Below, piece after piece: positions 1-30,483 of a DNA stretch of 30,483 nt (its first letter is position 1; every line of letters begins with the position of its first letter). Source of the stretch: Elusimicrobiota bacterium (GTDB lineage Bacteria > Elusimicrobiota > Elusimicrobia > F11); assembly GCA_046153645.1 (NCBI GenBank), contig JBJXGI010000067.1, positions 1 through 30,483 of the forward strand. The letters are read 5' to 3'. A model generated the notes under the pieces. It worked only from the letters and a program-made list of their open reading frames with translations. It ran no database searches and was not told where the DNA came from. Both the position numbers and the translations under genes were made by a program.

Positions 1-2
1 TT

Positions 3-5727: not shown

Positions 5728-5774
5728 AAAATCGTTTATGGAAAATAATGTAAATGAAAACAGCTTGCCAAGTG

Positions 5775-5894
5775 AATTCCTCCCCACGTATTTCAGTGGG
5801 GAGGCTAGGTGGGGAATGGATAGGTTTTTCCTTATAAAGAAAAATTTATCTATACCCCACCTAACCTCCCCTTTGTACTACAAGGGGAGGAATT
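5775..5894. repeat. 120-bp imperfect palindrome (REP/REPIN-like doublet) of two G/C hairpin units centred on TTATAA
   Basis: 5775-5834 matches the reverse complement of 5835-5894 at 48/60 positions by manual count. Each arm has its own hairpin (CCTCCCCAC-n8-GTGGGGAGG and CCTCCCCTT-n8-AAGGGGAGG). Same family as the arms at 9871-9932 and 10220-10281. Confidence 0.9.
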
Positions 5895-5918
5895 TCCCTC
5901 TATAGGAAAAGCTTCTTT

Positions 5919-8900: not shown

Positions 8901-9287
8901 ACGGTGACCTCTAATGCTGTTATTCTTATTGATCGTTTAAATGCGGTAAAAAAATCCCGGCGTCTTCTGCGAGCTGTGCTCATGGCTGGAATTGAGCGTT
9001 CACGACCTATTTTTATGACTTCTCTCTCAACGATCGCGGCTATGTTGCCTTTAACCTTTGCAAAAGGAGAATCCGCTGAAATGTGGGCGCCACTAGCAAA
9101 AACAGTGGTGAGCGGAATCGCCCTTTCATCGGTTCTGACATTGTTTGTTATTCCCGCCGCTTATGTGATGTTGGAAGTGACCACTCGAAATTGGGGTAGG
9201 CTGATCCTTGGAAAAGTTTCATTTTCTGCTCTCGTTTCAGAACTCAAATCTCCCAAGACAAAGATAAACCTCGGTACCGGTTCTTAA
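5919..9287 (+). CDS. RND-family (AcrB-like) inner-membrane transporter, 1122 aa
   Basis: 'SAKRPIATLM', 'SEEIERLITAPIEEAV', TM4 'GRMVDDSIVVFENI', 'YMVLACFFES', TM11 'RSRPIFMT', 'LTLFVIPAAY'. AGGA SD-like sequence at about 5904-5907. Confidence 0.95.
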   Translation: MFLTEASAKRPIATLMAVLAITMGGLIGLFTLPVDKMPNSEPPEISVFVGVRGGMPSEEIERLITAPIEEAVASMAGLKELMSVSRKDRSELYLYFENPDQVKRATLEVSERLAKIKGKLPKEIEKPIVARYKEGDHPVVILNATSSTKTPEFIRGLLERDLKPKLSRLTGVANVEIYGGRQRKILVEFEKVKLEMHRLPILEVIRQLGANNITLSSGEQFSQRDTWSIQVVGDFRSIDEMKELGVDVTKEGSRLRLKDIANIRDYFLEADSHSRINGQDSVTIQVQKESGANTIEVAQEVIKAANEYQKTLPPDVGIGVGLNQSVAIKQAISDVKEALTEGAFLTAFILWFFLRKTKQIAVIVLSIPVAVLGTFFVMTLHALIMGKLGNPPMFTINIMSLLGIALGIGRMVDDSIVVFENILHRYEEAAKKGEKNIDRVQLVVQATGEMALAVASSTLILVVIFLPIVLFSEDIRKKFSDVAFTVIVSLLGSLLMSITLVPLLASKMKFASIDGEGSDEYGWEKKLKEWFSKKWERFTRKKSDNSILIVNQEKLPASVKKKKFSDYIPSDILELFFFLPSLIRYFSQPHAWRKFLRKTTAWSIRNRVYVMLGVAASLVASLGIYQYGLAKEFVSSGNNDEFIIFVELPSGSKLEISDKIVSEVESTINALPEVKNVVRTVSSRVEGWSSKVYVSLKPESERTRTAQDLIQELRPKFKGVGGEYEAFIYFSEPSSSKELFIDLFGKDYNVLRDLAVEVAKRMQQVTGLRDVKLRYKPGQPEIRLRVDHSRASLFGLNSREIADTVHAQLRGLRATYFNSGNEQVETVARLTEEDRRTEENLKNLTFISNNKSRVIVPIQQVIDFENGYTPSEVFRRNKERVIEVSANRERLALSTAVDKVRAALKDLKVPIGYHYEFGGDYKKLVQSEKEFMYAFLIMGILVYMVLACFFESYGQPFLMLLTIPLALVGSMPMLWMTNTPVNMGVYIGLLMLGGTVTSNAVILIDRLNAVKKSRRLLRAVLMAGIERSRPIFMTSLSTIAAMLPLTFAKGESAEMWAPLAKTVVSGIALSSVLTLFVIPAAYVMLEVTTRNWGRLILGKVSFSALVSELKSPKTKINLGTGS

Positions 9288-10451: not shown

Positions 10452-10540
10452 TCTATCACCTTCGTTAAATTTTAATGCGTTTTTAAGAGGTTGTTAACTT
10501 GCTTAAAGTAGACTGGTGTCACGAAAGGATATTGAGAGTC

Positions 10541-10606: not shown

Positions 10607-10612
10607 TAGATC

Positions 10613-10693
10613 ATGATGAAAAATAAAAATATTAAAAAACTGAGTGCTATTTTCTTTTCGTTGACTTATTTGCACGTTAATGTTTTGTGGGCC
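10613..10693 (+). other. Predicted Sec signal peptide of the giant protein (about aa 1-27)
   Basis: Basic n-region (MMKNKNIKK), hydrophobic h-region (LSAIFFSLTYL) and probable cleavage after VLWA. Confidence 0.7.
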
Positions 10694-13600
10694 GCTTCAC
10701 CCTCATTGCCCCTTCCTCAAATGGTCAGAGAGTTAGCACTCACTTCATCTAATGATCCCTTAGTTCAACAGGTGAAGCAATCAACTTGGATCCTTTACGC
10801 GTGGAATGGTTTTTCTCAGGCCATCTTAAATAGAATTTATCCATCAAAATATTCTCTTTCCGTTCCCGCACAAGAAATTTTTGTGTTCCATCAAAACGCT
10901 CAAGATTGGTGGATGAAACAACCAAAACAACAAGATGGATCAAGCGTTGATAAAACAGAATTAGGCATTCAAAGAGAAAAACAAGGTGACACTCAAAAAT
11001 TAGATGAAGTTCGTCCCAATGCCAGTGCCATTAATAACCCTCAAACAAGGGAAGCGGCTAAAACATTATTATCGACCCCTGATGCTGTTTTGAGTAACCC
11101 CGGTGTGGGAGCCAAACAAATGTCGGTGGAAGGTTTGGCCGGCGGTGATGTTAAAAATGTGAGTGATGCCCTTAAAAGTAACCCCATCATTAATATCACC
11201 GAAGACAAGACTGGTAAAACAACGTTATTTGTAAAAGGTAAAGAGGGGACTTCTTTTAAAGTAGAACTCACCAAAGGCTCAGATGGCAAAGTAACCGCAA
11301 AATTTACCGTTGAACCAAAAACTGCTGCTAAGCAGGACTCCGCCACTAATCTAACACCAAAAGCGCCCAGCGATTTTAAAGGGATTCAAAATCCTTCTGT
11401 CAAAGATATTGCCAAACAAGCGGATGTTTATCTCCCGAAAATTGGTTTTACAGGAGACATGAAAAACGTTAATCCTGCTTCCATAAAAGTTGAAGGTCAG
11501 TTTAAAGAAACCTCAAAAGGTATTGTTTTTGAAGGTAAAATTTCTTTTCAAACAAAAGATGGCACGAAGCACAGCGTGCAAGTTGATAATAATGGAAAAG
11601 TAACTGAGGCCCTCACTCTTCCTCCTGTTTCTTCGGCCCCCGCAAACCCAAATTTTGCGACACCACAACAAATCAATCAGCTCAAAGAAGACGCGAAAGG
11701 AAAATTGCCGGAACAGGTCAATGATATAGCAGTTAATAAATTGGGAGAAATTGTTCAGTCCAAAGTTGATGCCAAGGTGGCTGGTTTGGAGAATGTTAAA
11801 GCCCCCGATACTTTTAAAGCACTTCTTGCTGAAGCTAAAGCCGTTCAACCTGGGAATGCCAAAGGTAAAATGGAATTGTCGGCCAAAGTTGAAAAGATTA
11901 ATGTGAGCCTCGCCAATATCGGTTTAAGAATTGAAGTTGTTAATGAGGGCCCCAAGGCTCAGTTGGTGGTCCAGAAAATTATTGGTACTGATGAGTTAAA
12001 AAAAAGTTATTCATTAACACCAGCTCATATGAGCGCAATTGATGATGCCAAAACAAAATTAGGAAAACCTGTTGTTTTTGTCGAAAGTATCACTCCTGGT
12101 GTTCAAGGATTAATGGGACTTACTCACGTAATGACGCAAACCAAAACATCTGGTGATGTTATTAATGCTCGTTTTACAGAAGTTCAAAATGTCGTTATCT
12201 ATGTCAGTGAAATTAAAGGTAATACAGACAAAGTAAAAGATGGTGGGCGCTCTGGTTCATCGGAACCTTTAACCACCATGCTTGCTCGAACAAAATTTCC
12301 TGTTCAATTAGATAACTTAAGTACGGGCGATATGATTGTGGCTACTGTTGCCCATGAAGTGTTAGGTCATGCGGCTCTTTCCACGACGGCTCCAGCTCGT
12401 TTTACAGAACTGAAATTTGATTTGAGCGGCGAAAAACAAAACCAAGCCAAAAATATTGACGAAGGTTTCGCGCATTTTCAACAGGTGTTGACAGGCTCTC
12501 CCCTTAGTGTGATGGCCAATCTCCATTCTCTCTATGAGAATGAAAACACAAAAGACGTTGCCACCTTGGGAACTATTGGAATGGAGCATAAACAGGGTTC
12601 AACAATGGTAATGGGAACTCTCTATAAACAATATTCAGAAAAAACCGGTGATAAAAGCCCGACCTATCAAAAACTAAGTTCTTACTTAAGTAATCTTGTA
12701 AAAGACAATAAAGTCAGTGATTTTAACGCTTTTTTTAAAGAAGCCGCTCAAGGCTATTCTCAAGAACATTTAAAGGTTGATTTGGCCAGTGTGGTTCCCA
12801 AAGCGCAAGCTATTACCCCAACGAATTTGACTCCTGTTGTTGATAACGGCCCGGCAAAGGTATTGCCAAATGCCGATAACATTCAGAATCCGAAAATTCG
12901 AGATGCTGTCAATGTTCTTATGAAAAACCCCGAAAATCTTTTTACTAAGCCCAATATTAAAGTTGAAGGTATAAAACCTAACGATAAAGCAGCGTTAGAA
13001 GCCGTTAAAAACCCACAAGATATTCAGATCTTGGAGGATAAAAAAACTGGAGATGTAACCCTTTCTGTTGTGGGCAAAAATGGGATTACAGCCCAAGTCG
13101 AAATTTCGGCAACGCCCAGAGGGCAAGTGATCGCCCGATTTGCCAATGTTGAACAGAAAACTGAAGATAAAGTCGACATGAGTGCAAAAGTATCTGGAAA
13201 CTTTAAAGGAATCAAAGACCCTTCATTAGACGGTTTTAGGAAAAATGCCAAAGAATACCTACCCAAAATTGGTTTTTCAGGCGATATCACAAATATTGAT
13301 CGCACCTCTATAAAGGTAGACGGGAAATTTGTCCAGACCGATAAAGGCCTTCAGTTCGTTGGAAAAGTTGAATTTAAAGCTATTAACGGAATTAAATACA
13401 ACATCACTTCCGACCAAAAAGGAAATATTAAAGAAGAAAAAGAATCAACACGAGCTGGTGTTACTCAAGAAAATACAAGAAACGCGGGCGGATTTATTGT
13501 TGCTCAAACTTTATTTCGCCAAGGTGATAAAGAAACTCGCGTTAATGGAGAGTTAAAAAACTTTAAAGCAAACACACAGGCCATCACGAGGCAAGTTTTT

Positions 13601-16600
13601 ATTCAAAGCGGAGAGGGAAAAGGCGAAGCAGCACCAAAACCAGCTATCAAGCTTGAAGGTGCCATAGGTGAATACGTGATTCGTGAACGCGGATTGGATA
13701 CCACGTTCAAAATGCAAAACAATAAAGTCGTTGCTATGAATATTGTGAATAATGAAACAGGCCAAGTTGTTGCCCAAAACAATCATGGCGTGATGCAGCG
13801 AATAAATGGAGTTGAAGCCAAAGAAGGCGGCATTGAAAAAAGATTTGTTGTTGTGTCAGGCCCTATTTTTGATTCTAAAACCGGAGCTTCCCAAGTTCGT
13901 ACGGTAAGTTTTCATGATCAAGGTGAGACGCGAACGGTTGAGGAGAATAACAACAAACAAAACAACGGGGGGAATAATTCGTCTGAAAGCCCCTTCCCCG
14001 CCAATGAAAATTTAAATCACGTCGATGTGGGTGTGCGCGTTCTTGTTCATAAAGAAAAAGACGGAAAAGTTTTGGTTCAAAAAAAAGCGGATGAAGATGG
14101 CGCTTCTATGGCCGGCATGATGAGTTTAGCGGGGAATACCTCTCAGGTGGTATCAACCAACAGAGAACGAGTGAGTGTGTATGTTCAAAATAATGAAGGT
14201 GTATTTATCCATGTTGCAAAAACTTTTGATCAACTCAGCATTGTAAGAACCGCTAAAGACGGAAAAGATGTCACCCCTCAAAAACTAAGTTCAGGCGGAG
14301 TTCAAATGCCAAACAAAGCCAATTCCTTTTTAGCGGTTCTCCTCCCTCAAAATATTTCCGCTCAGCAAAAACAAAAGTTAGCAGATATTAATATTATTGC
14401 GCATTCGCCTTTCCCCATTCAGGGCGCTATTGACGCTGTTGGAACCATAAAAATTCAAGATGGAAAAATGGCAGAAGCCGATGTCAAAATTACCATGCCC
14501 GGGAATAAAAAGGTCAATTGGCAGGAGTCAGAAAAAATATCTCAATTAGAAATATCAGATGGGATAACCAACATTAGAGAAACATTTATTGAAGCCAAGC
14601 CTGGGCAAACATATGAATTAGATCGTGCAGGAAACTTTTTACCACGAGCGGGATCCTCCTCTCATCTTGATGGCATAAAAGTGACGGGTCCCGATGGATC
14701 TGTGGTTCAGTTATCGCTGTCAAAAGATGGAAAGAAGATGGAGGTGATTGTTACCCCTTCTCTTTCTCCTGTTAAAGTAGCAGGACGCGATTTGGCTTTA
14801 AATTTAACGGGAGCTGTTTTTCAAGATGGAAAAATTTGGCGGCAACTGGCCAAGCCTGAGAGCTTTCGTGAACATGACGCCTATGTTAAAGACACCCTTA
14901 TTTCAAAAGCCAATTTTGATGTGCACTATGTTTCTGTGTCTCCCATGGGGCAAACTCTTTTATCTGCTGATATCAAGTTAGACCGTCCCATCACCCTTCC
15001 TAATAATTCTCCAGAAGCGGCCGCCGCCGGGGGGCAAGGAAATCAAGGCGGTACTAAATTAATGGGGTCGTCCACTCCTGGGGCAACGTCTTTTGGATTT
15101 CAGGCTCAAACGATTAATGGTCAATCCGTTTATACACCAACAAAAGGGGCAGAATCGCGCATTGCAGCCATTATTGCTGTCAAAACAGACCCTGATACAT
15201 ATAGTGAAGTTAAAGGTGAAAATGGAAAAACCGCTTTTACAGCGCAACTAAACTTATTCGCAGAAGGATCCAGCAAAATTTCTGTGGGAGCCGGTGGTTT
15301 TGAACACGCCAAGCATAAATTAGATGAAGGTCTTGAAATTAATGTGAACGATTTAGGTGAACTTAACATTGCTTCTTCTGATAAACCTGGGCTTCAAATA
15401 ACTTCTTTGAATGATAAATCCACTTTTATTTTTGACGCTAACTCTAGCGCACGGTTTGATCAAAATTTGAACATTCGTTCAAAGGGCGTTGACAAAGGAA
15501 CCATTACATTTCAATCAGCCAAAGAGCTTTTTATCCCTCAAAATTTGGCGGATCAATTGAAAGGGCTTAAAGCCGATGTGAAACAAGTGCGAATTGAGGA
15601 AATGAAAGCCGGTCAGCAAACAAAAACAATTCAAGAAGGAAAAGTGGAATGGAAAAATGATTCAGGCAGAGATTTATCTTTTAACACCAAAGAAATTTTG
15701 GGCGCTGATGGAACCGTCACCATAAAAAAAGGAAGCGAGTTTAATTCATCGGAAGCTTCTTTAAAAATTATTGCCGTAGGAGGCATTACTTTTCATGGAA
15801 AAAAAGGTCAAGTTGAAGTAACAGGGCCTTCCACCGTTAATGCTTCAATGGTCCCAGAAGGGCTTGAAGTAAAAGTTGTTAAACCTTTTCAGCGCGTTAT
15901 GAATCAAAATGGTGAAAAAGTAACCGCGCCCGAGTATCAATTTAGCGCCAAACAAGGAGGCGACGCCGCCTTTGTTGGAAAAGTGAACGCGGATGGAAGC
16001 GGCCACGCCATTTCTAAAGACGCTGTTTTTACAACCAATTCATTAGATCCCACCACGTGGCACAACTCGATGAAAAGAGAAAAGGGAACAATTCAAGTAT
16101 TTGGTCCCAGTGCCGGAGAACAAACAAAGGTCACTTTAGCCGAAGGAATCACCAAACAAACCGTTCAGCAATATCATTTTGAATATACCGCTTCTTCCAA
16201 ACAACCCACGGTTTCCAAACTTCAAATTGATGAAATCGATGGTGAAAAAGGAAAAGAACTAAAAGTATCTCAAATGCCAGGGGCCGTGGAAGGTCTTGGT
16301 AATAAAGATTTTACAGGAACGCTTAAATTTCAAACGGACGCTAAATTAACGCTGATTGATGGTCATCTTCGATTATCCACCACCGCCAAAGAAGGCGCTC
16401 AAGTATTAGTAGAACTAGATCAACCGCGCAATTTAAGCCATAACAATAACCCTCAATCACAAGCGAAAGAGAATTTGACTATTCAGCTCACCAAAGGAGA
16501 GAGAAATACCCAAATCCGAACGGATGATAAAACGATTGTAGGTGACAATGGAAACCTTGTTTCAGAACAAAGACGCACTATTAAAACAGAATTAGTCAAA

Positions 16601-22600: not shown

Positions 22601-25600
22601 TTAAAAACAGAACAACTTTCACCGGCAGAATTAGAGGTCGCTGTTACTAAAGCAGAGTCTTCAGAAGGGGTTAAAAAAAGAGTTACTGATGTTTTTTCTC
22701 AAAAACAAGTTGATAAGAGTGTTTTAAGGCGCGCGGTTCGATTTGCCACTGGACTAGCAGGAAAAGTTGGAAAAGATAATGTTATTTTTTCTGTTGTTAA
22801 AGAATTAAGAAAATTAGATGGAACAGTCACGGCTCAAGAGAAAGGAGCAAGAGTTCGTGAGTTGGCTAAAACAGCTGAAACGCGTGAAGAAAAAGAACTT
22901 TTTAATGATTTGATTTCTCATGTTGATCAATTGGCTTGCGGCACTTGTATGGTGGGTTATGTTGAACCTGTTATGTTCGCCGATGCGATTGATAGAACGA
23001 TTGCACGTGCTCCCCGTCAATTTGGTGATACTGTTCGTGAAAGAATCGGCTTAGAGCGAGTGACAAACGTTCTTAATCAAGGATCGGTTGGTTTAGACCA
23101 GTTGTCATCGATGCGTAAACAATTGATAAATGACCCAAAAAGTGTTGCTCGCTTAGATCAATTGATTCAAATGGTTCAGAATTCTGCTGCGCCTGTGAGA
23201 GGAAGGGTCGATAGAATAGAAATGAGGCTCGATAACGCTCAAGCTCGTTATCAAGCGGCCCTCTTAAAATATAGTCAATCCGGTTTCTTTGGTGCCATTA
23301 TGGCGAAAGCAGGGTTGTTTTTGGCCAGAAGAAATTTATCAATCTTGTCAACAAGTCTGAAAGTTGAGTCCTACCGAAATGAAATTTCACAAATGAAAGC
23401 ACAGTTAAAGTCGAGCAAAGGTGAAGAAAAAGATCGACTTGAAAAACTGATTTCCTCTTTCGAAGGAAAAATAAGAAGTGTTGAAAGGGCTGCTTTCTGG
23501 GGCGATAGAAAATCTTTAGATAAAGCCGATGCCTTGTCAACTCAGTTAGAGGGCGCCAAACTTTATGTTAGTAACGTCGAATTTAGAGCCATGCTTAAAC
23601 TCGACTTCCAAAAAGATCGAGACCAGCTTAAAAATGAATCCCCTGCGCTATCTGTTCGTTATGAAAAAATACTCAAACTCCAAGAAGAAAACAATGATTC
23701 AACAAAACCTCAAACTGATTCTGCTAAAAATGAAAGATTTGAAAAAATTCATGAGGAAACAATGGAATTGCGAAAGGCTTTAGGAATGACGCCAGAGAAA
23801 TTGAGCGAAGTTAAATCTCTGATGTATAAAAAAGACACCGACCCTGCCGATTTCGAAAAAGCTGTGAGTTCCCTCTTTAATGGCAAAAAAATTGAAAACC
23901 TTAATGCGGCAGAGCGTTTTGTGATTGCGAATGTTTGGATGGGAGAGTTTTTTAAATTTAAAAGTGAGATTGATGAAAAGACGATTGATGAAAAACCGGG
24001 GAATGCTTTGGCTTCGGGAAAACGAATTGCCCTTCTCACAGAATTAATACAAGGGAAAGTTACGGGTCTTGAACCAGGAGGAGGCAAATCTGCAGTTTAT
24101 ATTGCGGCAGCGGCTATTTTTGCGATGAAAAAGGGAGGAGAGAATTTTGTTCAGGAACTGATGGTGTTTGAAGGGGCTGAAGCTGGGAAATATGTGACAG
24201 ATCTTGTGAAAGGCTCTGAGGGATACGGGCAGTTGTTTCGATCTTTTGGTTTAGAAGCGGTGGATGGAAGAAATTTAGCGGGGAACAACCTTGAAAAAGC
24301 GATGAAGGTTTATACGCCCAATGCTTCAGGGGGACGTAAAAAAGTTGTTGTCGCTGATTTGCACAGTCGAGGGTTTTTGGAACGTCAAATTCGAAACGAC
24401 TATACGTCTCGTGATTTAAAAGAGCTGATGAGTCAATATATTGAAGCCTTGTTCATTGATGAAGCGGACGGAATGTTTAACAAAATGTCTTTTATTACAA
24501 GCAAAGAAGGTTTGGTGGCCAGCAAAAAAGACATCAATACCGTTGAAAGAATTGTCAATGCCGTGAGTGATGTGATGAAACTTTCAAAAAAAGACGGTTC
24601 CATTGACTTCGATACCCCTGCAGCGCGTAAAAAACAATTTGAATGGGGTAAAGACAAAGCGGGATACCGCGTGTTCTATGAGGCTATTACAGAGGCTCAT
24701 AAAAGAGACGGAATGTGGTTTACCAAAGACGGTGAAAATATTGTGATGTCGGACGCATTTAAAGAGGCGGTTCGAGAAAAGTTAGGTGTAGGGAAAGACA
24801 AAATTTCTGATGGAGAAGTGGAACAGGTGTTAAGAGCGCTGACCGGGGTCGGACAATTAAGAGATATGAAAGATGGAGGAAGAGGGCGACGTGAAGTTTC
24901 ATTTGAAAACATTATCTCCAAAGAACCCAATGCGCCAAAAGAAAAATTTCATCAAGTCACACCAGTAAGTGGTGGGAAACCACAATTTGGAATGATTGAT
25001 GGCAGCATTGCGTTTGTTGTGGCAGCGAATCTTTTTAAACTTCGAGATAAAAATTATTCTCAAAGCGGCCTTAAAATAAATAAAGAGGCTATTAAAATTT
25101 CCGAATCCAGTTCTGCTGCGAACTTTGTCCAAATTGCCTCAAGAAGCATTTTTATTGCGGGAGCCACCGGAACTCCTGCGACCCTAAAATTTTTAAAAGA
25201 AATGTTGGGTTTTGAAATCAGTGATGTTTATGCGGGAAGTTTTAATCAGTACAGCGTAACTAATGTTGTTACTGGACTCAGTTCCATCAATGATATTTTT
25301 AATCAGTTCCAAATAAAAGACGCGACCAGGGGGCGGCATTTATACCCAGATGGAAAAGGCGCTGGTTTTAAAGAAATGGCACTCGGGCATTTAGAAGCCA
25401 AAAATGCTGTGAGTAAATATGAGGCCATTGCGGACATGATCGAGAGATCATTTGCAGAAGGAGAAAGTAAAGGCGAAGTGACAGGTGTCGGTATTATTTC
25501 TACTTTCGAGGCAGATTTAATTGGAGGCTTAAAAGCATATATTAAACGAATTGACACAGAGTTTTTTGACATTCTCGAAGCCAAATCTCAATCGATATCA

Positions 25601-28600
25601 GGGATTAAACCTTTTTTCGATTTATTGTCCGTTGAGGCTGGCAAAGTCAGCAATCCAAAGTTAGCTGATTTAGTCAAGATGCTTCATATTGTGCATGACG
25701 AAGTTAGTGCCAAAGATGCTGATGGAGTTTTGATTACAACCAGCGTGACAGGAGATAACCGTGGGCGAATTCTTTTAGGAACTCAAATTATGGAACGCGG
25801 CATCAACCTAAAAGATGGCCCCAAAAGTCGGTCTAATTTAATGGTTCTCGGATATGAAACAGTCACCGCTTCTAGTTTGCTGCAAGCGCTGAAAAGAACT
25901 CTTCGTAACCCCGAGGATTTAAAATCTCGTGTTGTGATTGTGTCAGATAGGAGTATTTTAGAGGCCCGTTTAGCAGATGCGAGAGGCAATGATGTCATGC
26001 TCACCCAAAAATATGGCCGAGCCAAAGGCGTTTTTGGAGAAGACAAATTAGGAGATAAAAATTTAAGCAAACTTCTTTATGAAGATGTGAAGAGTCTTTC
26101 CACGCACGAATTGGTTGTTTTGGTTTCCATGTATGAAGATTATGCGGAGTTAGGGCAAAAAGTCCGTTTTTATTCGAGAGAACAAGCCACCGCTAAATTG
26201 TTATTAGAACCAGTCGGTCAATACGCGATGATTGAACAGGCGCGCGGACGGTCTGCGGGTCTTAAATCTTTGGAGAAAATTAAATCAGATAATTTAAATT
26301 CCACTGATAAAACCAATGGCAACAGCGGTCTGGCAGCTAAGGACCCAAGAAAGCAAGCAGCTGATGATTTTAGGGAAGCCGCGCAAAATGCTTTTTCTGC
26401 CCTTTCACGTATTGCCGGTGACCGAAGTATTTCCAGAGATATTCGAGAAGATGCGCTGGCCAGAATGGTTGACATCACCTCCTCGTTATTTGGTGTCAAA
26501 GACGCCGCTGCTAATTTTGACCGAAAAACGGGGCTCTATTCTGGCGCTCGATTTGATTCACTTAGTTTTGCCGATGTTTCGAAATCTATGTCAGACCGCC
26601 CCGCTTCTCAAGTGCGGGACACCATGCTTCTTTTATCTAATTATTTACTTCCCACGTCCCAACGACAAAAAACGGCGGATGGTGTTAAAGATGCTCCTCA
26701 GCGCGTTTCAGTTTCTGCTGATGCCAGTTCTAAAACAGGCTTGGCAGAATTCGTTAAAACAGCCGATGGGAAAACAGATGATGGGCAAATAGATGCGGCA
26801 AAGTTTTTGGGCGATATTGCTGAAGGCAAAGCCAAATTTTCTGATTCAGACTCGAACGATTCTCGTTATGCCACAGTGGCGGAACAACAGGCTTATTCGG
26901 CTTACCAAGTCACGAAAGGGATGAGTGATGATGATCAAAAAAATCTCTTAACAGGTTTAGTGGGATTGGGTGCGTTGGATGCCAATGCATTAAAAGCGGT
27001 GGGAGATAAAAAGAAAGTGGCCTTGCAACTCATGGTGGCATGGAATTCTTTGGGTCTCTCACCTGAAGAATTTAATGCGCGCGCCCTGGTGGATGGAGCA
27101 AATAATTTATCTTCTCTTGTGCGAACTTCATTAGAACAGCGTAACCCTGCTCAAGGGGCCTTTAATACGAATGGGAATTTCTTTACCAATGATTTAATTT
27201 CGCTGAAAGAATTACAAGGTATGCTTGTTCAATTAACGATGGCTTCAGATTCTGCTGATGCGGCTTCTCTAAAAGCGCAGGATGGGACAATTCTTATAAC
27301 GCAGCGCAAAGAAATTTTGGCCGATGCGACATTACGAATAAACGGAATCGATACCACCACTCCTGATGGGCGCAGAAAAGCCTCTCTCACTCCTTTAACT
27401 CAATATGCTTTGACCATTTACAACGCCGCGCAAAAAGGAAAAGCCATTGAAGCGGCGCAGTCCCCCTTAAATCAATTGTCGGGTGGTAGTGTGATTGTCC
27501 AGGGTTTTTATATGGCCAAATTGATCGCTGGTGCTCTTTATAATATGGCCTTTAACCCCGCCCGAAAAGTAAAGGCACTCAATAAACTTTCTTTAAGAGC
27601 TTTAAGCCCCACTTTTATGACTACAACCGATCAAGGCCGCGCCATTAACTATCAATCGGCGATGGCGGTCTTTTCTTTGGTTGGGAATGTCACCGGCAAA
27701 ACGAGAGAAGCTGTTCGAGGGTTAATGGATAAACTAACCCTCATAGATGATGCTTCGAATCTTGACCCGAATGAGCAAAAAATACCCTTTGTCGATAATG
27801 CAATCAATTCAGGAACGGTTGAAGATTTGGTTAATTCCGCAACATCGAGCAACGATGTGACTCAACAAGTAAAAACCTATCTTAAACGCGGTCTTCAACA
27901 ACAAACAGAATTTACAAAAAGGGTTCCTGCAACGCTTAAGAAAGTTTTAGGTATTTCAACAGCCATCGTACCTTTACTGGCGGTTCAACTTCTAACTGGA
28001 TTAGGAAGTGTTGCAGGATTGGCATTACCCTATATATTGGTTCCGCTCATCGCTTTTTTTGCTGTGGCAAAATTCCTTTCCTTTAATAGTGTTCCTCAAG
28101 AAAAACCAAAAGATGAGGGAAAGAAAAGTTTGAGAGAAAAAGCCTTAGGCGGCATGATGTCAAGCTTGACCGCTGGAAACACGGCTGGACAATCAACAGG
28201 AAAGCTTCTCATGGGTTTGGCGCTTCCCATAACTATTGCAGCCGTGTTCTTTGGAGCTTGGGCTGTGGTTGCTGCGGTGGCTGTTGGGGTGGCTGGTTTG
28301 GCCGCTAATTTTACGGCTCTTTACGTGAAAAATGGAGAAGTGAGAAAGCCTATTCTTGGAAAACTTTTATCCATTGGTTTCTTGGGTGTATTTTTAAATA
28401 CCAATTTCGAGCCAACTCAAATTTCACGAGGATTAGGAGTTATAAATAGACTAGAAGGAGATACCACCAGGGGAGATCCTCAGAAAAAAGCAGCTCTTGA
28501 TAAAGCCAATGCTGAGCTTCAAGAAATTCAAAACGAATTTCAAAAACCAGATCCAAGTCAACCTCAAAATCAACAAAATTCGATGGGTAAGTTGATGCAG

Positions 28601-30483
28601 AAATTAGGCGAAGTTCAGGCGTTGACAAAGGAATACGATGAATCTGCAAGACTCACTGTCGGTCAAATGCTTACAGATATCAATAAAAATTATCCTGACT
28701 TAACGAATGAAGAAGTCACCAATCTAATAAAAACAATTGTTCTCATTCAAACAGGAAAAACTGAAAATGTGGACACCTTATCCAAAGTGATTGATGTCAT
28801 TTTATCGGTGTCACCTGTCACTGGTGAAACGGCTGATCTCATTGAAAAATTAACCGACGAATTAACTCCAAAAATAGAAGCCATTGAACTTGAACGAAAT
28901 AAATTGAAGGGATCTCTATCCGAAGAAGATAAAGCAGAAATCCTGACCAAGATCGATAAATTGGAAGGCGCGCTTTTTGATTATTTAATGGACGAATTTA
29001 AAACTGAAATGTCGGATGTGAAGGTGCTAACTGATTTAGAAGCGAAGTTGTCTGCTGTTGAAAATCTACCGTTAAATCAACAAATCAGTGGTTTGGTTGA
29101 TATTCTTATCGCTCCTCGAATGGGCAATGTAAAGGCGGCTGTTCAAAAAGCTTTGGTTGATTCTAAGTTGCCTGAAGCCCAAGTGAATGCCTTGTCAAAC
29201 TTGGCTTCCGATTTCCCATGGTTTGCCGGTTTTATTAAAGATATAAAAATCGAAGATGTGGGATCGATGGATCTAACCACAATGCTTTCTTTGGCTTCTT
29301 TTGATAAACAAAACAAACAAAATATTACACCTGAAAGCGTTGACAGATTTCTTGAACAAGCCAGTTATTTAACTGGTGAGCAAAAAATGGATTTCAGAAG
29401 TCATTTGGCTGGCACTGAAATGACCGCTGATACATGGGATACTCTTTATACGAGATATGAAGAGTATGAGTCCACTGAAAAAGATTGGAGCGCCAACCCC
29501 ACCGTCAATGATTTTAAACCCCAACCTTCAAGCGGCCCCAGAAATTTAGTTCAAGCGCTGGCAGGTGTTAAAAGTGATTATGGTGTTTTACCTGTGGTGT
29601 TAGAAGGGTTGTTTGGAAAAGATCATGATTTAACCAAAGCGGCCAGTGCTATTGCCACTGCTCGCGCTCAAAAGGGAAACACTTTTGTCGACTCAACTGA
29701 CTTTCCTATTGATCCTATTGAGATGACTCGAATTGCTGGTCAATATAAGTTAACCGATCAGCAGTATTCTCGGTTGTACGACTACAAAAAACCAAATCCC
29801 CGTGCTGATTACTTTAACCCCTCGGCATTATTTACTGTTATCACCTCTCAAACGGGAGCCAAAAAAGTTCTTTTTAATAAAGCTGATAAATCTTATTCAT
29901 TACTAGATGAAAACGATCAAGTGATTGGGAAATTAGACTTGTTGGGGAAATCCATTGCTGAAATTACACTCATCAAAAATGGAACGGAATATGGAACGCT
30001 GTATTTCGAATTAGGAACCGGGTTTTCTTTAAAAGATTATTCACTCACAGCAAAACCAGGTTTTGTTCTTCAGGCTACTTTTGAGGGAGAAAACCCCAAT
30101 ACTTGGTTTTCATTCCAAAAAATTGATATCAGAGAGTTAAAAACGGAAAAGATACGATTTGTTTCTGACGATAAAGTTACGAATCCTCGTTTTTCTGATG
30201 CTTTTTTCCCAAGAAAAGAAGGGGGGCGATATGAGAAAAAAGAAAATCGAAAACCAACATTTATTATTGCTCCTGATTTAGAGAATAAGAAGACGGTTGT
30301 TCCCTCTGTTGCCCCTGATAACCAACCGCCAGGAAATGGGGCGGCTCCTGCTAATAAAGCTCCTTCTGTTCCAGTGGTTCCCGAGCCCATGGCAGATCCT
30401 GAAATACCAGAGGCAGAACCAGTTGAATCAGTTGTTGATGAAACACCTTTAGAAGAACCGCAGGTGGTTCCAGTAGCCCCTTC
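10613..30483 (+). CDS. Giant multidomain exported/membrane protein (>6,620 aa, 3'-partial) with zinc-metallopeptidase motif, multiple TM blocks and divergent SecA-like DEAD ATPase
   Basis: ATGATG at 10613 begins MMKNKNIKKLSAIFFSLTYLHVNVLWAASP. I found no in-frame stop up to the last base (...EEPQVVPVAP). The ORF track lists no terminated ORF in this frame, only short off-frame or antisense shadows, which is consistent with one run-off ORF. Confidence 0.95.
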   Translation, partial: MMKNKNIKKLSAIFFSLTYLHVNVLWAASPSLPLPQMVRELALTSSNDPLVQQVKQSTWILYAWNGFSQAILNRIYPSKYSLSVPAQEIFVFHQNAQDWWMKQPKQQDGSSVDKTELGIQREKQGDTQKLDEVRPNASAINNPQTREAAKTLLSTPDAVLSNPGVGAKQMSVEGLAGGDVKNVSDALKSNPIINITEDKTGKTTLFVKGKEGTSFKVELTKGSDGKVTAKFTVEPKTAAKQDSATNLTPKAPSDFKGIQNPSVKDIAKQADVYLPKIGFTGDMKNVNPASIKVEGQFKETSKGIVFEGKISFQTKDGTKHSVQVDNNGKVTEALTLPPVSSAPANPNFATPQQINQLKEDAKGKLPEQVNDIAVNKLGEIVQSKVDAKVAGLENVKAPDTFKALLAEAKAVQPGNAKGKMELSAKVEKINVSLANIGLRIEVVNEGPKAQLVVQKIIGTDELKKSYSLTPAHMSAIDDAKTKLGKPVVFVESITPGVQGLMGLTHVMTQTKTSGDVINARFTEVQNVVIYVSEIKGNTDKVKDGGRSGSSEPLTTMLARTKFPVQLDNLSTGDMIVATVAHEVLGHAALSTTAPARFTELKFDLSGEKQNQAKNIDEGFAHFQQVLTGSPLSVMANLHSLYENENTKDVATLGTIGMEHKQGSTMVMGTLYKQYSEKTGDKSPTYQKLSSYLSNLVKDNKVSDFNAFFKEAAQGYSQEHLKVDLASVVPKAQAITPTNLTPVVDNGPAKVLPNADNIQNPKIRDAVNVLMKNPENLFTKPNIKVEGIKPNDKAALEAVKNPQDIQILEDKKTGDVTLSVVGKNGITAQVEISATPRGQVIARFANVEQKTEDKVDMSAKVSGNFKGIKDPSLDGFRKNAKEYLPKIGFSGDITNIDRTSIKVDGKFVQTDKGLQFVGKVEFKAINGIKYNITSDQKGNIKEEKESTRAGVTQENTRNAGGFIVAQTLFRQGDKETRVNGELKNFKANTQAITRQVFIQSGEGKGEAAPKPAIKLEGAIGEYVIRERGLDTTFKMQNNKVVAMNIVNNETGQVVAQNNHGVMQRINGVEAKEGGIEKRFVVVSGPIFDSKTGASQVRTVSFHDQGETRTVEENNNKQNNGGNNSSESPFPANENLNHVDVGVRVLVHKEKDGKVLVQKKADEDGASMAGMMSLAGNTSQVVSTNRERVSVYVQNNEGVFIHVAKTFDQLSIVRTAKDGKDVTPQKLSSGGVQMPNKANSFLAVLLPQNISAQQKQKLADINIIAHSPFPIQGAIDAVGTIKIQDGKMAEADVKITMPGNKKVNWQESEKISQLEISDGITNIRETFIEAKPGQTYELDRAGNFLPRAGSSSHLDGIKVTGPDGSVVQLSLSKDGKKMEVIVTPSLSPVKVAGRDLALNLTGAVFQDGKIWRQLAKPESFREHDAYVKDTLISKANFDVHYVSVSPMGQTLLSADIKLDRPITLPNNSPEAAAAGGQGNQGGTKLMGSSTPGATSFGFQAQTINGQSVYTPTKGAESRIAAIIAVKTDPDTYSEVKGENGKTAFTAQLNLFAEGSSKISVGAGGFEHAKHKLDEGLEINVNDLGELNIASSDKPGLQITSLNDKSTFIFDANSSARFDQNLNIRSKGVDKGTITFQSAKELFIPQNLADQLKGLKADVKQVRIEEMKAGQQTKTIQEGKVEWKNDSGRDLSFNTKEILGADGTVTIKKGSEFNSSEASLKIIAVGGITFHGKKGQVEVTGPSTVNASMVPEGLEVKVVKPFQRVMNQNGEKVTAPEYQFSAKQGGDAAFVGKVNADGSGHAISKDAVFTTNSLDPTTWHNSMKREKGTIQVFGPSAGEQTKVTLAEGITKQTVQQYHFEYTASSKQPTVSKLQIDEIDGEKGKELKVSQMPGAVEGLGNKDFTGTLKFQTDAKLTLIDGHLRLSTTAKEGAQVLVELDQPRNLSHNNNPQSQAKENLTIQLTKGERNTQIRTDDKTIVGDNGNLVSEQRRTIKTELVKEENIIADAFIVANPSLVEKNGKVISEMSYSNKRDSNGFIRHSNRTEVINKGQTDQEVSITETLGDSKLYKETNGGKWRGNQIFLSETKITGIGKSAEKTSQIFIRNVDSLRVYDKIASVGKDIFQIAQPAGGTPRDSIFGEISKEAITQDHVVMYAPMIKYFKTLAKNNASVKLDGVQYHIKDASFIASAESLAKFKNEDKISLLTPDGSTVEGTISNKEQDRKSTKVDVLFDRKIDQFASSSDSAQGRVFQTGFRFVQEQKVYSQSNAFFLGQVKTDSGENVEFKKSGAGIEFTSPGQFQLLGNTVKAEPSADGQSQKISTVLSESNLGKTAIAFTNQDSIKGTVFHIPERTVTIETGSPESKIQISGKDAQGKYILGLQIDAPSDSDKRNYFVLTSEQSQSTNGSSFVIETGTQLRENSNGAVQILSGSLRVNEGSFLNVGKAFSREEKGNVGIYKPEGGAGGISKAEMVRYEIKDGQMLMKEGRVYVYSDKNVEEPTKAGFLAGTIFDDLDMSGGGDKGFRKFRVLNDDVSFDYAVILGGQRDPQREESASTRYDEYEVGQLNNRLQEKGKGWNPDRSDFVVKKEGDGDVKFLWEGTDKKSKMKLVEAEKSESVTIVLFSSNLFRLGTRTTSFEEKYWLTMDQKTWNLEGGNFTYFNPDPKWTFSLDENKKIQGSFFERSDIYVRGLSSFGRAVAIKSGETRASDYSSILTLKIFSGKVLDRPVQMNTYNLSKYMSGNPSSLISVAVWNPNALGVGKGRYMGSGTETDDKRIVYGGFATVKDLKPITGILVGAIALTTALVTGGGSLAVGISALSGFFSGTSAYQGFLAGSDGMGITMLVLGIVPGVISVIGKYFSSAAATAGGTALRTSTSFLGKSSLNSAFVVPLVKYGYKETAKTLLKVSSATGQVLGGGLQFLIRKVAATQVQKAWDAYKKEGELNSKVWKEAAVALLYIASSEIKVAMQLLGGMSRIPGFAKTADTIGKFSNLSTGTQLLVVAATGFAIGYSVQLISSLQNQSFKRLTSASGFTEFMVNEFIGSALWSGVKTAATFVAALSVLKVFGRFAPAPVAGAKTTSQGWGSAIKAEGALHGSNALAGGAALATYGALSGQSSGSIWTSAKQGAFFGLLIGGIGHAVATTWSKAFGNLKESALAGAAAITKFRLEAGVTVAVWETLIGKGLGLNHWLEKQGEKLGFWKSDPDKDKSASQLNSQAAQERANIDKELSSIESDPDKTPDQKQAESKEVLKGYSKIVALEKKAELKTQHETTGATGLFNAIGLGGKSAKIAGDFVDTTVQMSLMAPAFAFGRVGLSPAGQVGHWARGLQNIANKSFANGHKVTAVLAFTGSKGLQHFVAMPLTFQVFGWVEKGAVAISDEIGIVQVKRENGVRVLEDEKFVAAEGTNQAAIDLISTAGFLFAPTHAPQSRFMKEMSKISSRSDFSVVDLLPGVRNVRQTETRKIAVDLMGKDAAFMENYFGGKYKVSVEEAGIASHMLKNFYYGQDKGKVGSSFIPQETFDFSTGEKGFEGPKSDGLMIARKNGDIEATRLPEQQKAEKSNKPESAPKESEIPAENKTPTGEENTKQPEGKQAEVTDIFDFSPTVEAAKNEGTKNKKDEEAPTTPASLKSEENLQIVLSAQRGETQDVTPDQIKAARDAWGLKEGDVILSFSAADKSTAIAVHLTFMTDGQLTKFIDNTLQGKMPGDKADLEKAAQQAVGILAQRSSSFFGRTEAVINRITDFSGSTHLDAFTRLQLATGAIKGETIDGVRVLKDANVNQLTEDSRSSLLAVAGYEDVQLFDVVLGDQFSVIIAKAEKSYAVDVVTKNTSPRSPPVNKSEASSRNSKTADTATAVLEKPTPLVKTNADLVVTLIEKGVLKKDDLNTVLTFEENGKLGSVQILSDKGRSAVRFDVGKDASEPVVTQLVSRRTVWSLMNEIKAQDGKAHVFLEFVDQSNLLKGGVRNLLDRFSGNRDILVERNADGKISDVVTADGASYSKHLLKTEQLSPAELEVAVTKAESSEGVKKRVTDVFSQKQVDKSVLRRAVRFATGLAGKVGKDNVIFSVVKELRKLDGTVTAQEKGARVRELAKTAETREEKELFNDLISHVDQLACGTCMVGYVEPVMFADAIDRTIARAPRQFGDTVRERIGLERVTNVLNQGSVGLDQLSSMRKQLINDPKSVARLDQLIQMVQNSAAPVRGRVDRIEMRLDNAQARYQAALLKYSQSGFFGAIMAKAGLFLARRNLSILSTSLKVESYRNEISQMKAQLKSSKGEEKDRLEKLISSFEGKIRSVERAAFWGDRKSLDKADALSTQLEGAKLYVSNVEFRAMLKLDFQKDRDQLKNESPALSVRYEKILKLQEENNDSTKPQTDSAKNERFEKIHEETMELRKALGMTPEKLSEVKSLMYKKDTDPADFEKAVSSLFNGKKIENLNAAERFVIANVWMGEFFKFKSEIDEKTIDEKPGNALASGKRIALLTELIQGKVTGLEPGGGKSAVYIAAAAIFAMKKGGENFVQELMVFEGAEAGKYVTDLVKGSEGYGQLFRSFGLEAVDGRNLAGNNLEKAMKVYTPNASGGRKKVVVADLHSRGFLERQIRNDYTSRDLKELMSQYIEALFIDEADGMFNKMSFITSKEGLVASKKDINTVERIVNAVSDVMKLSKKDGSIDFDTPAARKKQFEWGKDKAGYRVFYEAITEAHKRDGMWFTKDGENIVMSDAFKEAVREKLGVGKDKISDGEVEQVLRALTGVGQLRDMKDGGRGRREVSFENIISKEPNAPKEKFHQVTPVSGGKPQFGMIDGSIAFVVAANLFKLRDKNYSQSGLKINKEAIKISESSSAANFVQIASRSIFIAGATGTPATLKFLKEMLGFEISDVYAGSFNQYSVTNVVTGLSSINDIFNQFQIKDATRGRHLYPDGKGAGFKEMALGHLEAKNAVSKYEAIADMIERSFAEGESKGEVTGVGIISTFEADLIGGLKAYIKRIDTEFFDILEAKSQSISGIKPFFDLLSVEAGKVSNPKLADLVKMLHIVHDEVSAKDADGVLITTSVTGDNRGRILLGTQIMERGINLKDGPKSRSNLMVLGYETVTASSLLQALKRTLRNPEDLKSRVVIVSDRSILEARLADARGNDVMLTQKYGRAKGVFGEDKLGDKNLSKLLYEDVKSLSTHELVVLVSMYEDYAELGQKVRFYSREQATAKLLLEPVGQYAMIEQARGRSAGLKSLEKIKSDNLNSTDKTNGNSGLAAKDPRKQAADDFREAAQNAFSALSRIAGDRSISRDIREDALARMVDITSSLFGVKDAAANFDRKTGLYSGARFDSLSFADVSKSMSDRPASQVRDTMLLLSNYLLPTSQRQKTADGVKDAPQRVSVSADASSKTGLAEFVKTADGKTDDGQIDAAKFLGDIAEGKAKFSDSDSNDSRYATVAEQQAYSAYQVTKGMSDDDQKNLLTGLVGLGALDANALKAVGDKKKVALQLMVAWNSLGLSPEEFNARALVDGANNLSSLVRTSLEQRNPAQGAFNTNGNFFTNDLISLKELQGMLVQLTMASDSADAASLKAQDGTILITQRKEILADATLRINGIDTTTPDGRRKASLTPLTQYALTIYNAAQKGKAIEAAQSPLNQLSGGSVIVQGFYMAKLIAGALYNMAFNPARKVKALNKLSLRALSPTFMTTTDQGRAINYQSAMAVFSLVGNVTGKTREAVRGLMDKLTLIDDASNLDPNEQKIPFVDNAINSGTVEDLVNSATSSNDVTQQVKTYLKRGLQQQTEFTKRVPATLKKVLGISTAIVPLLAVQLLTGLGSVAGLALPYILVPLIAFFAVAKFLSFNSVPQEKPKDEGKKSLREKALGGMMSSLTAGNTAGQSTGKLLMGLALPITIAAVFFGAWAVVAAVAVGVAGLAANFTALYVKNGEVRKPILGKLLSIGFLGVFLNTNFEPTQISRGLGVINRLEGDTTRGDPQKKAALDKANAELQEIQNEFQKPDPSQPQNQQNSMGKLMQKLGEVQALTKEYDESARLTVGQMLTDINKNYPDLTNEEVTNLIKTIVLIQTGKTENVDTLSKVIDVILSVSPVTGETADLIEKLTDELTPKIEAIELERNKLKGSLSEEDKAEILTKIDKLEGALFDYLMDEFKTEMSDVKVLTDLEAKLSAVENLPLNQQISGLVDILIAPRMGNVKAAVQKALVDSKLPEAQVNALSNLASDFPWFAGFIKDIKIEDVGSMDLTTMLSLASFDKQNKQNITPESVDRFLEQASYLTGEQKMDFRSHLAGTEMTADTWDTLYTRYEEYESTEKDWSANPTVNDFKPQPSSGPRNLVQALAGVKSDYGVLPVVLEGLFGKDHDLTKAASAIATARAQKGNTFVDSTDFPIDPIEMTRIAGQYKLTDQQYSRLYDYKKPNPRADYFNPSALFTVITSQTGAKKVLFNKADKSYSLLDENDQVIGKLDLLGKSIAEITLIKNGTEYGTLYFELGTGFSLKDYSLTAKPGFVLQATFEGENPNTWFSFQKIDIRELKTEKIRFVSDDKVTNPRFSDAFFPRKEGGRYEKKENRKPTFIIAPDLENKKTVVPSVAPDNQPPGNGAAPANKAPSVPVVPEPMADPEIPEAEPVESVVDETPLEEPQVVPVAP
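11009..11608 (+). repeat. Intragenic protein repeat, copy 1 (~200 aa)
   Basis: VRPNASAINNPQTREAAKTLLSTP...FKGIQNPSVKDIAKQADVYLPKIGFTGDMKNVNPASIKVEGQF...DNNGKVTE aligns with copy 2. Confidence 0.85.
12353..12475 (+). other. Zinc-metallopeptidase-like motif HEVLGH ... DEGFAH
   Basis: 'IVATVAHEVLGHAAL' (HEVLGH at 12353-12370, about aa 581-586) and 'DEGFAH', with Glu at 12461, 31 residues after the second His. Confidence 0.7.
12860..13435 (+). repeat. Intragenic protein repeat, copy 2 (~192 aa)
   Basis: VLPNADNIQNPKIRDAVNVLMKNP...FKGIKDPSLDGFRKNAKEYLPKIGFSGDITNIDRTSIKVDGKF...DQKGNIKE. Confidence 0.85.
18965..20730 (+). other. Gly/Ala-rich hydrophobic helical region (membrane-inserting block 1)
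   Basis: ITGILVGAIALTTALVTGGGSLAVGISALSGFFSG, MGITMLVLGIVPGVISVIG, LLVVAATGFAIGYSVQLI, AATFVAALSVL, ALAGGAALATYGAL, GAFFGLLIGGIGHAVA. Confidence 0.75.
23900..25950 (+). other. Divergent SecA-like SF2 (DEAD) ATPase domain within the giant protein
   Basis: Motifs in SecA order: LEPGGGKS (24068-24091), YGQLFRSFGL, VVVADLHSRGF, LFIDEADG (DEAD at 24458-24469), IAGATGT (25154-25174), KYEAIADMI, GRILLGTQIMERGINL (25763-25810), LMVLG, QALKRTLR (25883-25906). Confidence 0.85.
27944..28396 (+). other. Multi-pass transmembrane block 2 (about 4-5 helices)
   Basis: VLGISTAIVPLLAVQLLTGLG, LALPYILVPLIAFFAVAKFL, LLMGLALPITIAAVFFG, AWAVVAAVAVGVAGLAANF, ILGKLLSIGFLGVFL. Confidence 0.8.

Follow-up and report, generated by a model that had tools for sequence, protein, structure and literature searches.

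A giant Elusimicrobiota gene encoding a putatively membrane-anchored protein with a divergent SecA-like ATPase

The giant gene and its extent

The DNA analyzed here (the window) is a whole contig, JBJXGI010000067.1 (C87), 30,483 nucleotides (nt) in length, from an Elusimicrobiota bacterium whose genome (G000) is a metagenome assembly of 2.63 Mb in 105 contigs, rated at 99.7% completeness and 1.73% contamination. Genes for a TolC-like outer membrane protein, two AcrB-type RND proteins and a lipoprotein lie at its 5′ end, and most of the remainder is taken up by the first part of one giant gene, the subject of this work, whose product would be anchored in the inner membrane and carries an ATPase that resembles SecA. 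The coordinates of these features are collected in Table 1.

The preliminary description of this DNA, which was made from the sequence alone, had reported an uncalled open reading frame (ORF) that fills two-thirds of the window. We found that frame +2 is indeed open from the ATG at position 10613 to the window edge, that the translation of these 6,623 codons is free of stops and that the frame occupies 19,871 of the 30,483 nt (65%). The word "uncalled" holds for the ORF track, which skips frames running off the source; the product has already been called publicly, as a protein of 6,624 amino acids (aa) in a public protein collection (P0002). The chance of 6,623 stop-free codons is ~10^-197 at the base composition of the same stretch. 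The assigned start is sound, since a stop codon precedes the ATG by one codon and four relatives (P0005, P0007, P0026 and the relative in genome G317) show conservation of the N-terminus.

A stop codon was found beyond the contig end. The final 24 nt of the window are the first 24 nt of the reverse-complemented contig C62 of the same assembly, on which (L003:242-6274, minus strand) the matching frame adds 2,010 codons before it reaches a stop; neither of the other two frames is open there, and they hold nothing longer than 80 aa. The total comes to ~8,626 aa, and residue numbers below refer to this virtual joined protein (C87 plus C62), of which residues 1-6623 lie inside the window. Two relatives were colinear with it in BLASTP: P0005 (7,844 aa, on a 257-kb contig) from q1-99 through q7946-8622, and P0006 (7,285 aa) from q883 to q8573. 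Genome G317 holds a complete gene of 8,369 aa on a 606-kb contig (C5 256702-281811), and a frame of 6,610 aa in genome G318 contains both the motor and the C-terminal domain. The join between C87 and C62 is therefore supported by colinear single-chain relatives (7,844, 7,285, and 8,369 aa) that span it. Logan contigs of three runs from one study showed 0 differences to the window where they cover it, at a depth of ~2-8, although these runs may derive from the very sample that yielded the assembly and for that reason do not count as independent evidence. They cover parts of 26484-30380 and none reaches or crosses the window end; the 24-nt end overlap was not found in a metagenome contig search either. 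These data indicated that the frame belongs to one real gene of ~8,626 aa.

At the other end of the window, its start is overlapped by the last 20 nt of contig C79. C79, C87 and C62 thus probably form one region of ~90 kb, which also carries giants of 8,738 and 3,011 aa. After the stop of the giant gene, C62 (L003 1-241) contains two GC-rich hairpin repeats of the CCCTC.../...GAGGG type and then ends. The division of the locus among three contigs is probably due to such repeats in combination with the low read depth (2-8 per run).

TABLE 1 Features of the window, with positions in the window and residues of the virtual joined protein
Feature	Residues	Positions	Strand	Basis or remark
TolC-like OEP gene, two AcrB-type RND genes, 305-aa lipoprotein gene		1..9287	+	Pfam
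Giant gene, first 6,623 codons	1-6623	10613..30483 (10613..30481 in the ORF listing with open ends)	+	ATG start, runs off contig 3′ end
Signal-peptide-like N-terminus	1-28	10613..10696	+	Lys-rich start, hydrophobic core, ...VLWA/AS
Repeat copy 1	132-332	11006..11608	+	BLASTP versus residues 750-942
Orphan module between repeats	333-749	11609..12859	+	HEVLGH at residues 581-586, nt 12353-12370
Repeat copy 2	750-942	12860..13438	+	BLASTP versus residues 132-332
Presumed exported region	878-2516	13244..18160	+	Shared in part with P0005, P0006, P0007 (BLASTP)
Gly/Ala-rich membrane block	2784-3365	18962..20707	+	At least 5 hydrophobic uncharged segments
Conserved helical pre-motor region	4054-4379	22772..23749	+	CxxC at residues 4109-4112, nt 22937-22948
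SecA-like two-lobed ATPase (motor)	4380-5180	23750..26152	+	Profile, fold, motifs
Walker A GGGKS	4489-4493			Motor motif
DEAD	4616-4619			Motor motif II
GATGT	4850-4854			Motor motif III
Motif V Arg	5062			Motor motif
Motif VI QxxxRxxR	5091-5098			Motor motif
Conserved post-motor region, helical by composition	5181-5700	26153..27712	+	BLASTP to relatives
Two hydrophobic hairpins	5778-5819, 5865-5905	27944..28327	+	Each with Lys/Arg-rich flanks
Leu/Glu/Lys-rich variable region	5906-6554	28328..30274	+	Composition
Pro/Glu-rich linker	6555 to edge	30275..30483	+	Contig break falls inside

The SecA-like ATPase

Motifs I, II, III, V and VI of superfamily 2 (SF2), which belong to two RecA-like lobes, were all located in the motor (Table 1). 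The SecA-like ATPase announced by the preliminary description stood up at the levels of profile, fold and motif, but not in Pfam, which gave no match on a 900-aa piece over the motor. When a profile of nine relatives was compared with the PDB, SecA chains were the sole matches below an E value of 0.05 (0.0073, 0.0073, and 0.041), and they aligned at Walker A and at motifs V-VI. A Foldseek search with the AlphaFold model of the motor pointed in the same direction: among the rows listed, each one above rank 23 was SecA or SecA2, led by Bacillus subtilis SecA (1tf2; E 9.2e-11, TM 0.36), and the first non-SecA entry was Brr2 at 4.2e-5. In a VIA structural comparison the alignments to full-length SecA extended over 483-488 residues versus ~313 for Brr2 and Ski2/Hel308-type helicases, with a root mean square deviation of 7.5-8.5 Å and 10-16% identity for SecA.

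Between motifs II and III, ~230 aa are inserted, for which the model has a predicted local distance difference test (pLDDT) score of ~40-80. SecA carries its preprotein-binding (cross-linking) domain between the same two motifs; in DEAD-box helicases the distance between them is short. The catalytic residues are nearly invariant in the family: the G and K of Walker A were found in 45 of 45 sequences, the D of motif II in 50/50 and its E in 49/50, the T of motif III in 46/50, and the Q of motif VI in 52/52, with its two R in 52/52 and 51/52.

The motor thus shares with SecA and SecA2 (1tf2; Mycobacterium tuberculosis SecA2, 4uaq), which are its best structural and profile matches, a two-lobed DEAD-type architecture, a Walker A of the form GxGKT/S, DExD, the motif III threonine, the motif VI QxxxRxxR and a large insertion between motifs II and III. 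It differs from SecA, a soluble protein of ~900 aa, in being an internal part (from residue ~4,400) of a membrane protein, in having no Pfam match and in lacking a C-terminal zinc-binding tail; in part of the family a CxxC is present instead, ~270 residues before the motor. This CxxC had been noticed earlier, and it comprises the sole two cysteines in 8,626 residues. Five of the seven sequences examined contain it (this protein, that of G317, P0005, P0006 and P0007). A universal dimerising zinc site at this CxxC was considered and dropped as a core feature of the family, the motif being missing from the G318 protein and from the G337 fragment.

A housekeeping SecA of 895 aa, which scores 425.5 bits with PF07517 (SecA_DEAD), is encoded elsewhere in the genome, on C101, and the motor is for this reason regarded as accessory. 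From its motifs and modelled fold we concluded that it is probably an active SF2 ATPase, nearest to SecA and outside the SecA sequence family as defined by Pfam.

Of the 401 genomes sampled from the phylum, 8 gave matches to the motor region, this genome included; by GTDB family, they occurred in 4 of 7 genomes of its own family, 2 of 9 of a second and 1 of 89 of a third. Every match lay inside an open frame of 1,936-8,370 aa, with one gene per genome, and windowed BLAST of the protein against all ORFs of its own genome revealed no paralogue. Among 1.84 billion protein representatives, the motor profile matched 75 at E≤0.001, 55 at ≤1e-10 and 39 at ≤1e-30. Many of the 75 are proteins of 4,000-7,800 aa, no cluster of normal SecA size and number is present among them, and the named members are "hypothetical proteins" of Elusimicrobiota or Endomicrobiia. 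All 10 clusters that were looked up (10/10) are singletons at 90% identity. A related-locus search with an alignment of four close rows gave three loci, and a word-indexed homologue search with the motor, conducted among proteins of 3,642-11,591 aa, retrieved the window's own protein alone. Between the G317 protein and this one, only ~2,000 of ~8,400 residues align by BLASTP.

Membrane segments and zincin-like modules

The signal peptide described at the N-terminus is plausible on heuristic grounds, as a Lys-rich n-region is combined with a hydrophobic uncharged stretch at residues 10-38. Two repeat copies follow, as reported earlier, and these are 40% identical (E 2.7e-33, BLASTP). The orphan module between them had been described as a metallopeptidase, an assignment that is unconfirmed: its motif, HEVLGH, reads HExxxH and not HExxH, and relatives of the module did not appear. 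No match was obtained for the module in Pfam, NCBIfam or the PDB, and a word-indexed search with residues 335-750 that covered 7,010 candidates of 228-728 aa was without a relative. A language-model Atlas search, whose scores of 0.83-0.91 are to be taken as leads only, gave weak leads for the module at 0.85-0.91, among them "Peptidase MA-like" (0.88) and NleC (0.85). Relative P0026 has a single repeat copy and lacks the module, which therefore looks like an insertion. Further along, residues 878-2516 have no match in Pfam, NCBIfam or the PDB and contain no further internal repeats.

The Gly/Ala-rich hydrophobic block, also seen in the preliminary description, is composed of 14% Gly, 12% Ala and 10% Leu. 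A hydropathy heuristic placed its segments at residues 2784-2830, 2832-2851, 2984-3018, 3120-3140 and 3348-3365, and the block matches the G317 protein (q2874-3181) as well as P0005 and P0007. Behind the motor, the conserved region has BLASTP matches in P0006 (to q5699), P0007 (to q5516), P0034, P0037 and others. What had been described as a block of several transmembrane segments at residues 5778-5905 was borne out as hydrophobic segments arranged in two hairpins, and a third hairpin is located beyond the window, at residues 7708-7756 (C62). The variable region at 5906-6554 has no BLAST match in relatives, and the Pro/Glu-rich linker is present at the window edge as described. Overall, behind the signal-like N-terminus, the heuristic yielded four blocks with a total of 11 hydrophobic uncharged segments of at least 18 residues. 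Given the Lys/Arg-rich sequence on either side of all three hairpins and the need of the ATPase for ATP, the chain from residue ~3,400 to its end is most simply viewed as lying in the cytoplasm, tethered to the membrane; export would then concern only the first ~2,750 residues.

Beyond the window, three HExxH zincin-like modules and an Ala-ended tail were found in total. Two of the modules are copies of a ~360-aa unit on C62 that are 43-45% identical, with an invariant FIHExxH and a later AxE. This unit is shared only with G317 and G392 (3 of 401 genomes), and its profile gave no meaningful match in the PDB. Modules appear shuffled between relatives: the HExxH module lies behind the motor here (residues 6716-7393) and ahead of it in G317 (residues 3486-3736).

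The third module belongs to the C-terminal domain, in which HELGH is found at residue 8410 and the chain ends with ...IKQQA. Of five aligned relatives, four retain the HExxH, and a Glu-Ala ~27 residues further on is conserved. A profile of this domain produced no meaningful match in the PDB, and no sequence-family match was detected. In its predicted structure, three strands precede the helix that bears the HExxH, and the following helix contains the Glu. Zincins headed a wide VIA search with this model, in which DUF885-type, M13, YbeY, M48 and M1 proteins ranged from Z 9.1 to 5.9 (among them YbeY 6.9, Zmp1 6.7, and BepA 6.2), and a generic HAD-like alpha/beta match covered the last ~110 residues of the domain. 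A helix-borne HExxH behind a small sheet, with the Glu in the next helix, is common to gluzincins such as the DUF885-type proteins 3o0y and 3iuk, the M13 enzymes PepO, ECE-1 and neprilysin, the M48 protein BepA, and M1. Unlike these, the C-terminal domain has no sequence-family match and a low-confidence model, is predicted to be cytoplasmic, and is joined in one chain to a small alpha/beta domain whose amphipathic tail ends in Ala. The model thus lends moderate support to a gluzincin-like C-terminal domain.

Proposed role and genomic setting

We consider it fairly probable that the gene encodes a giant, almost cysteine-free, inner-membrane-anchored protein with a membrane-tethered SecA-type ATPase that handles polypeptides. 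In such a protein, the residues up to ~2,750 would be exported under the direction of a Sec-type signal, the Gly/Ala-rich membrane block would follow, and three helical hairpins would hold the other ~5,800 residues to the membrane at its cytoplasmic face. The cytoplasmic part would contain the very divergent, catalytically intact SecA-type ATPase, with an insertion at the place of the preprotein-binding domain. The motor could help to export, insert or remodel very large proteins, either its own exported part or other giants, and the zincin modules could act as processing proteases. A polypeptide-handling ATPase combined with processing peptidases is also the reading proposed for giant proteins of Omnitrophota by West-Roberts et al. 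2023 (10.1101/2023.11.21.568195), and it appears to be the best supported one here. Under the positive-inside rule the motor and the HExxH modules would be cytoplasmic, which fits export or processing better than the attack role entertained in the preliminary description.

Several results weigh against this proposal. The topology is predicted from the hydropathy heuristic and the positive-inside rule. No read or contig that was examined bridges the C87/C62 join, which the relatives bridge by homology. Pfam and NCBIfam gave no family above cut-off anywhere in the whole protein, searched as 13 overlapping 1,000-aa windows; phmmer searches of three large pieces against the PDB were likewise without a match. 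(Sub-threshold Pfam matches to TraK_N, FANCI_S1-cap, Na_Ca_ex_C, Kri1 and M48 [E 0.063] were treated as chance.) PF07517 misses the motor even when all six frames of the genome are searched at E≤1, and hhalign of the family profile with the genome's own SecA returned a probability of 9.5% (E 0.0034) over the Walker A stretch alone. Confidence in the ATPase model is middling (pLDDT 65.7; predicted template modelling score 0.48). The model of the C-terminal domain reaches a pLDDT of 55.1 overall and 65-87 over residues 490-820 of the modelled piece, Foldseek found no match for it at E≤0.001, and the Z scores of the zincins at the top of the VIA search are modest (3o0y 9.1, 3iuk 7.4, PepO 7.0, and ECE-1 6.9). 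Finally, VIA Z scores of 13-14 place SecA (13.9 and 13.8) level with Brr2 and Hel308 (14.1 and 13.9), so a motor for nucleic acids keeps some probability. Self-export in cis is also awkward: by the time the motor has been translated, the exported part has long been made, and the chain behind the motor seems to be entirely cytoplasmic. Action in trans, with other giant proteins as substrates, is no less likely.

The Z score tie bears on the strongest competing explanation, to which we assign a low probability, namely, that the motor is a membrane-tethered SF2 helicase or translocase of the Ski2/Hel308/DEAD-box type acting on RNA or DNA at the membrane. The failure of Pfam SecA_DEAD and the poor hhalign result with the genome's own SecA would also fit such an enzyme. 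These have to be set against the PDB profile matches below E 0.05, which are all SecA, and against Foldseek, in which SecA runs four to six orders of magnitude ahead of helicases. Moreover, the SecA alignments in VIA are ~170 residues longer, the ~230-residue insertion falls where SecA has its preprotein-binding domain, and no nucleic-acid-binding family of Pfam or NCBIfam was matched anywhere in the protein. If the motor does not handle polypeptides, the "SecA-like" labels repeatedly given to giant proteins need revision.

The preliminary description had assigned the protein to a class of giant proteins with many transmembrane segments and divergent SecA DEAD domains, which are reported mainly from Omnitrophota. 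In West-Roberts et al. 2023, that class is recognised by Pfam SecA_DEAD, "giant" means at least 30,000 aa, two types ("Archaeovorin" and dockerin) are distinguished, and very large genes in Elusimicrobiota are mentioned too; a 2026 preprint on Omnitrophota lists a PF07517 architecture cluster. The general plan is shared: a single very long ORF that is mostly unannotated, a signal-adjacent N-terminal region without known domains, many hydrophobic segments, a SecA-type ATPase beside membrane anchors with a separate normal SecA, and peptidase modules that might process the chain. Membership in the class as defined does not follow, since the present protein comes from Elusimicrobiota, is ~8,626 aa long and has a motor that is missed by every SecA model of Pfam. 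Glycosyl hydrolase or transferase, dockerin, C39 and S8 domains, which occur in the giants described there, are absent here; the peptidase-like modules are HExxH zincin-like instead, and TolC/RND genes, not those of type II secretion, are found next to the gene. A literature search, which did not extend to the supplementary tables of West-Roberts et al. 2023, found no description of a SecA-like motor in Elusimicrobiota giants. Relative to these sources, the kind of protein, a giant with a SecA-like motor, is known, and new are the phylum and a Pfam-invisible motor with intact motifs and SecA-first fold matches; the zincin-like modules, the Ala-ended tail, the extreme cysteine depletion and the TolC/RND neighbourhood are further novelties with respect to the Omnitrophota giants.

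This body plan is thereby extended beyond Omnitrophota, and the motor defines a compact, testable family of 75 representatives, with complete examples of ~8,400-8,600 aa, a size that allows expression of single domains. If the polypeptide-handling role is correct, the family bears on how proteins of thousands of residues are exported or inserted and on the purpose of the Ala-ended tails that other giants of this genome carry.

Giant frames are abundant in this genome: 53 open frames of at least 1,500 aa make up 18.1% of the 2.63 Mb and six of at least 5,000 aa make up 5.2%, with some of them being pieces of one gene split by contig ends. According to PMC11573180, Elusimicrobiota are enriched in proteins of more than 5,000 aa, none of which has a COG assignment. 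Cysteine accounts for 0-0.41% of residues in all 17 frames of at least 3,000 aa (17/17) versus 0.71% overall (ORFs of at least 200 aa). Among ORFs of at least 1,500 aa with a complete 3′ end, 32 of 42 terminate in Ala, compared with 132 of 1,505 ORFs of at least 200 aa. The endings are mostly QA, AA, NA or HA, usually after an amphipathic helix, and the motor protein and its relatives in other genomes also end in Ala. By sequence, the Ala ending resembles a C-terminal signal used throughout the genome.

The genes before the giant gene make up an efflux-type operon, in the order TolC-like OEP, AcrB-type, 305-aa lipoprotein and second AcrB-type. The OEP match lies at 3-1655 (E 1.4e-41, Pfam) in an ORF that is open at the window's 5′ edge and extends into C79 by another 134 codons, which begin with a Met and a signal-like sequence. 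Pfam assigned OEP and two ACR_tran matches, and nothing else, to the five upstream ORFs. The same four genes stand in the same order upstream of the 8,369-aa relative in G317, where the counterpart of the 305-aa lipoprotein, which belongs to no known family, is 48% identical (E 4e-97). This order was read in G317 only, the loci of other relatives being cut by contig ends or runs of N, and the downstream neighbours differ between relatives.

Such surroundings are the main argument for a second alternative, which we rate a little below the helicase: that the protein is a fused, self-contained exporter that works with its TolC-like and RND neighbours in a type-I-like route for giant, cysteine-poor, Ala-tailed proteins. 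In Kamneva, Poudel and Ward 2015 (PMC4452313), stand-alone secondary SecA_DEAD proteins are proposed to power a type-I-like route, replacing the ABC ATPase beside HlyD, M50-like and OEP proteins. The present locus would be a fused analogue. It has in common with the loci described there an accessory SecA-type ATPase, an OEP/TolC-type protein and metallopeptidase-like parts, and it differs in that their ATPase is a separate, Pfam-detected protein accompanied by HlyD and M50-like proteins, while motor and peptidase-like modules are fused in one giant chain here and RND pumps are adjacent. The presence of a single motor gene alongside many Ala-ended, cysteine-poor giants is also what this alternative would lead one to expect. 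On the other hand, no HlyD-type (membrane-fusion), M50 or ABC family was detected in the window by Pfam, the synteny was seen in two genomes of one family only, the downstream genes differ between relatives, and the motor protein itself carries the Ala tail. A bolder form, in which a Gly/Ala conduit, the SecA-derived motor, the zincins and TolC/RND make up the single-copy engine of an undescribed export route that would move or mature the giant, cysteine-poor proteins and the Ala tail is their sorting signal, seems to us just as doubtful.

Less probable again is a passive giant surface or envelope protein, an adhesin or spacer, in which the enzyme-like modules are inactive relics. Most of the sequence matches nothing, the proteins evolve fast, as seen in the singleton clusters, and the modules are shuffled, all of which would suit a passive protein. 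Its ATPase motifs, however, are almost invariant across 45-56 members and the HExxH and Glu are kept in the C-terminal domain, which argues for selection on activity. Nor does the chain resemble a standard adhesin or RTX protein, families named in the preliminary description: Pfam and NCBIfam detected no Ig-like, cadherin or RTX family, and the first 2,790 residues hold one repeat pair. A chimeric contig or a false long frame, as might arise in a 105-contig assembly of low per-run depth in which the gene is cut at a contig end, is highly improbable in view of the full-length colinearity of relatives (including those on the 606-kb and 257-kb contigs), the per-run contigs without differences, the chance of so long an open frame and the ratings of the assembly.

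Several repeat elements occur between the neighbouring genes. A small inverted-repeat element occupies 9871-10281, in the intergenic region upstream of the giant gene, with 92.5% identity between its terminal inverted repeats of 67 nt (9871-9936 and 10215-10281), both of which contain a CCTCCCCAC...GTGGGGAGG hairpin. The arms enclose a truncated DUF559 ORF on the minus strand (9983-10159; E 5.6e-21, covering positions 5-59 of the 109 in the profile). The element recurs, whole or in part, on C79, C31, C86 and C74, and arm-like copies are found within the window at 5775-5895. A 15-nt perfect inverted repeat (GGTACCGGTTCTTAA ... TTAAGAACCGGTACC) is present in 9275-9340, between the RND gene and a convergent minus-strand ORF (9338-9718) that encodes 126 aa with a hydrophobic N-terminus and belongs to no family; similar stretches occur on C80, C74, C70 and C67. 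Finally, the 170 nt before the start codon (10440-10612) contain several GTTGTTAA/GTTGTTAC-like words, for example ...GTTGTTACAAAGTTGTTACAACAAATTTACAACTTGTTAATGCGTTGTTAAGG..., which are possible operator sites.

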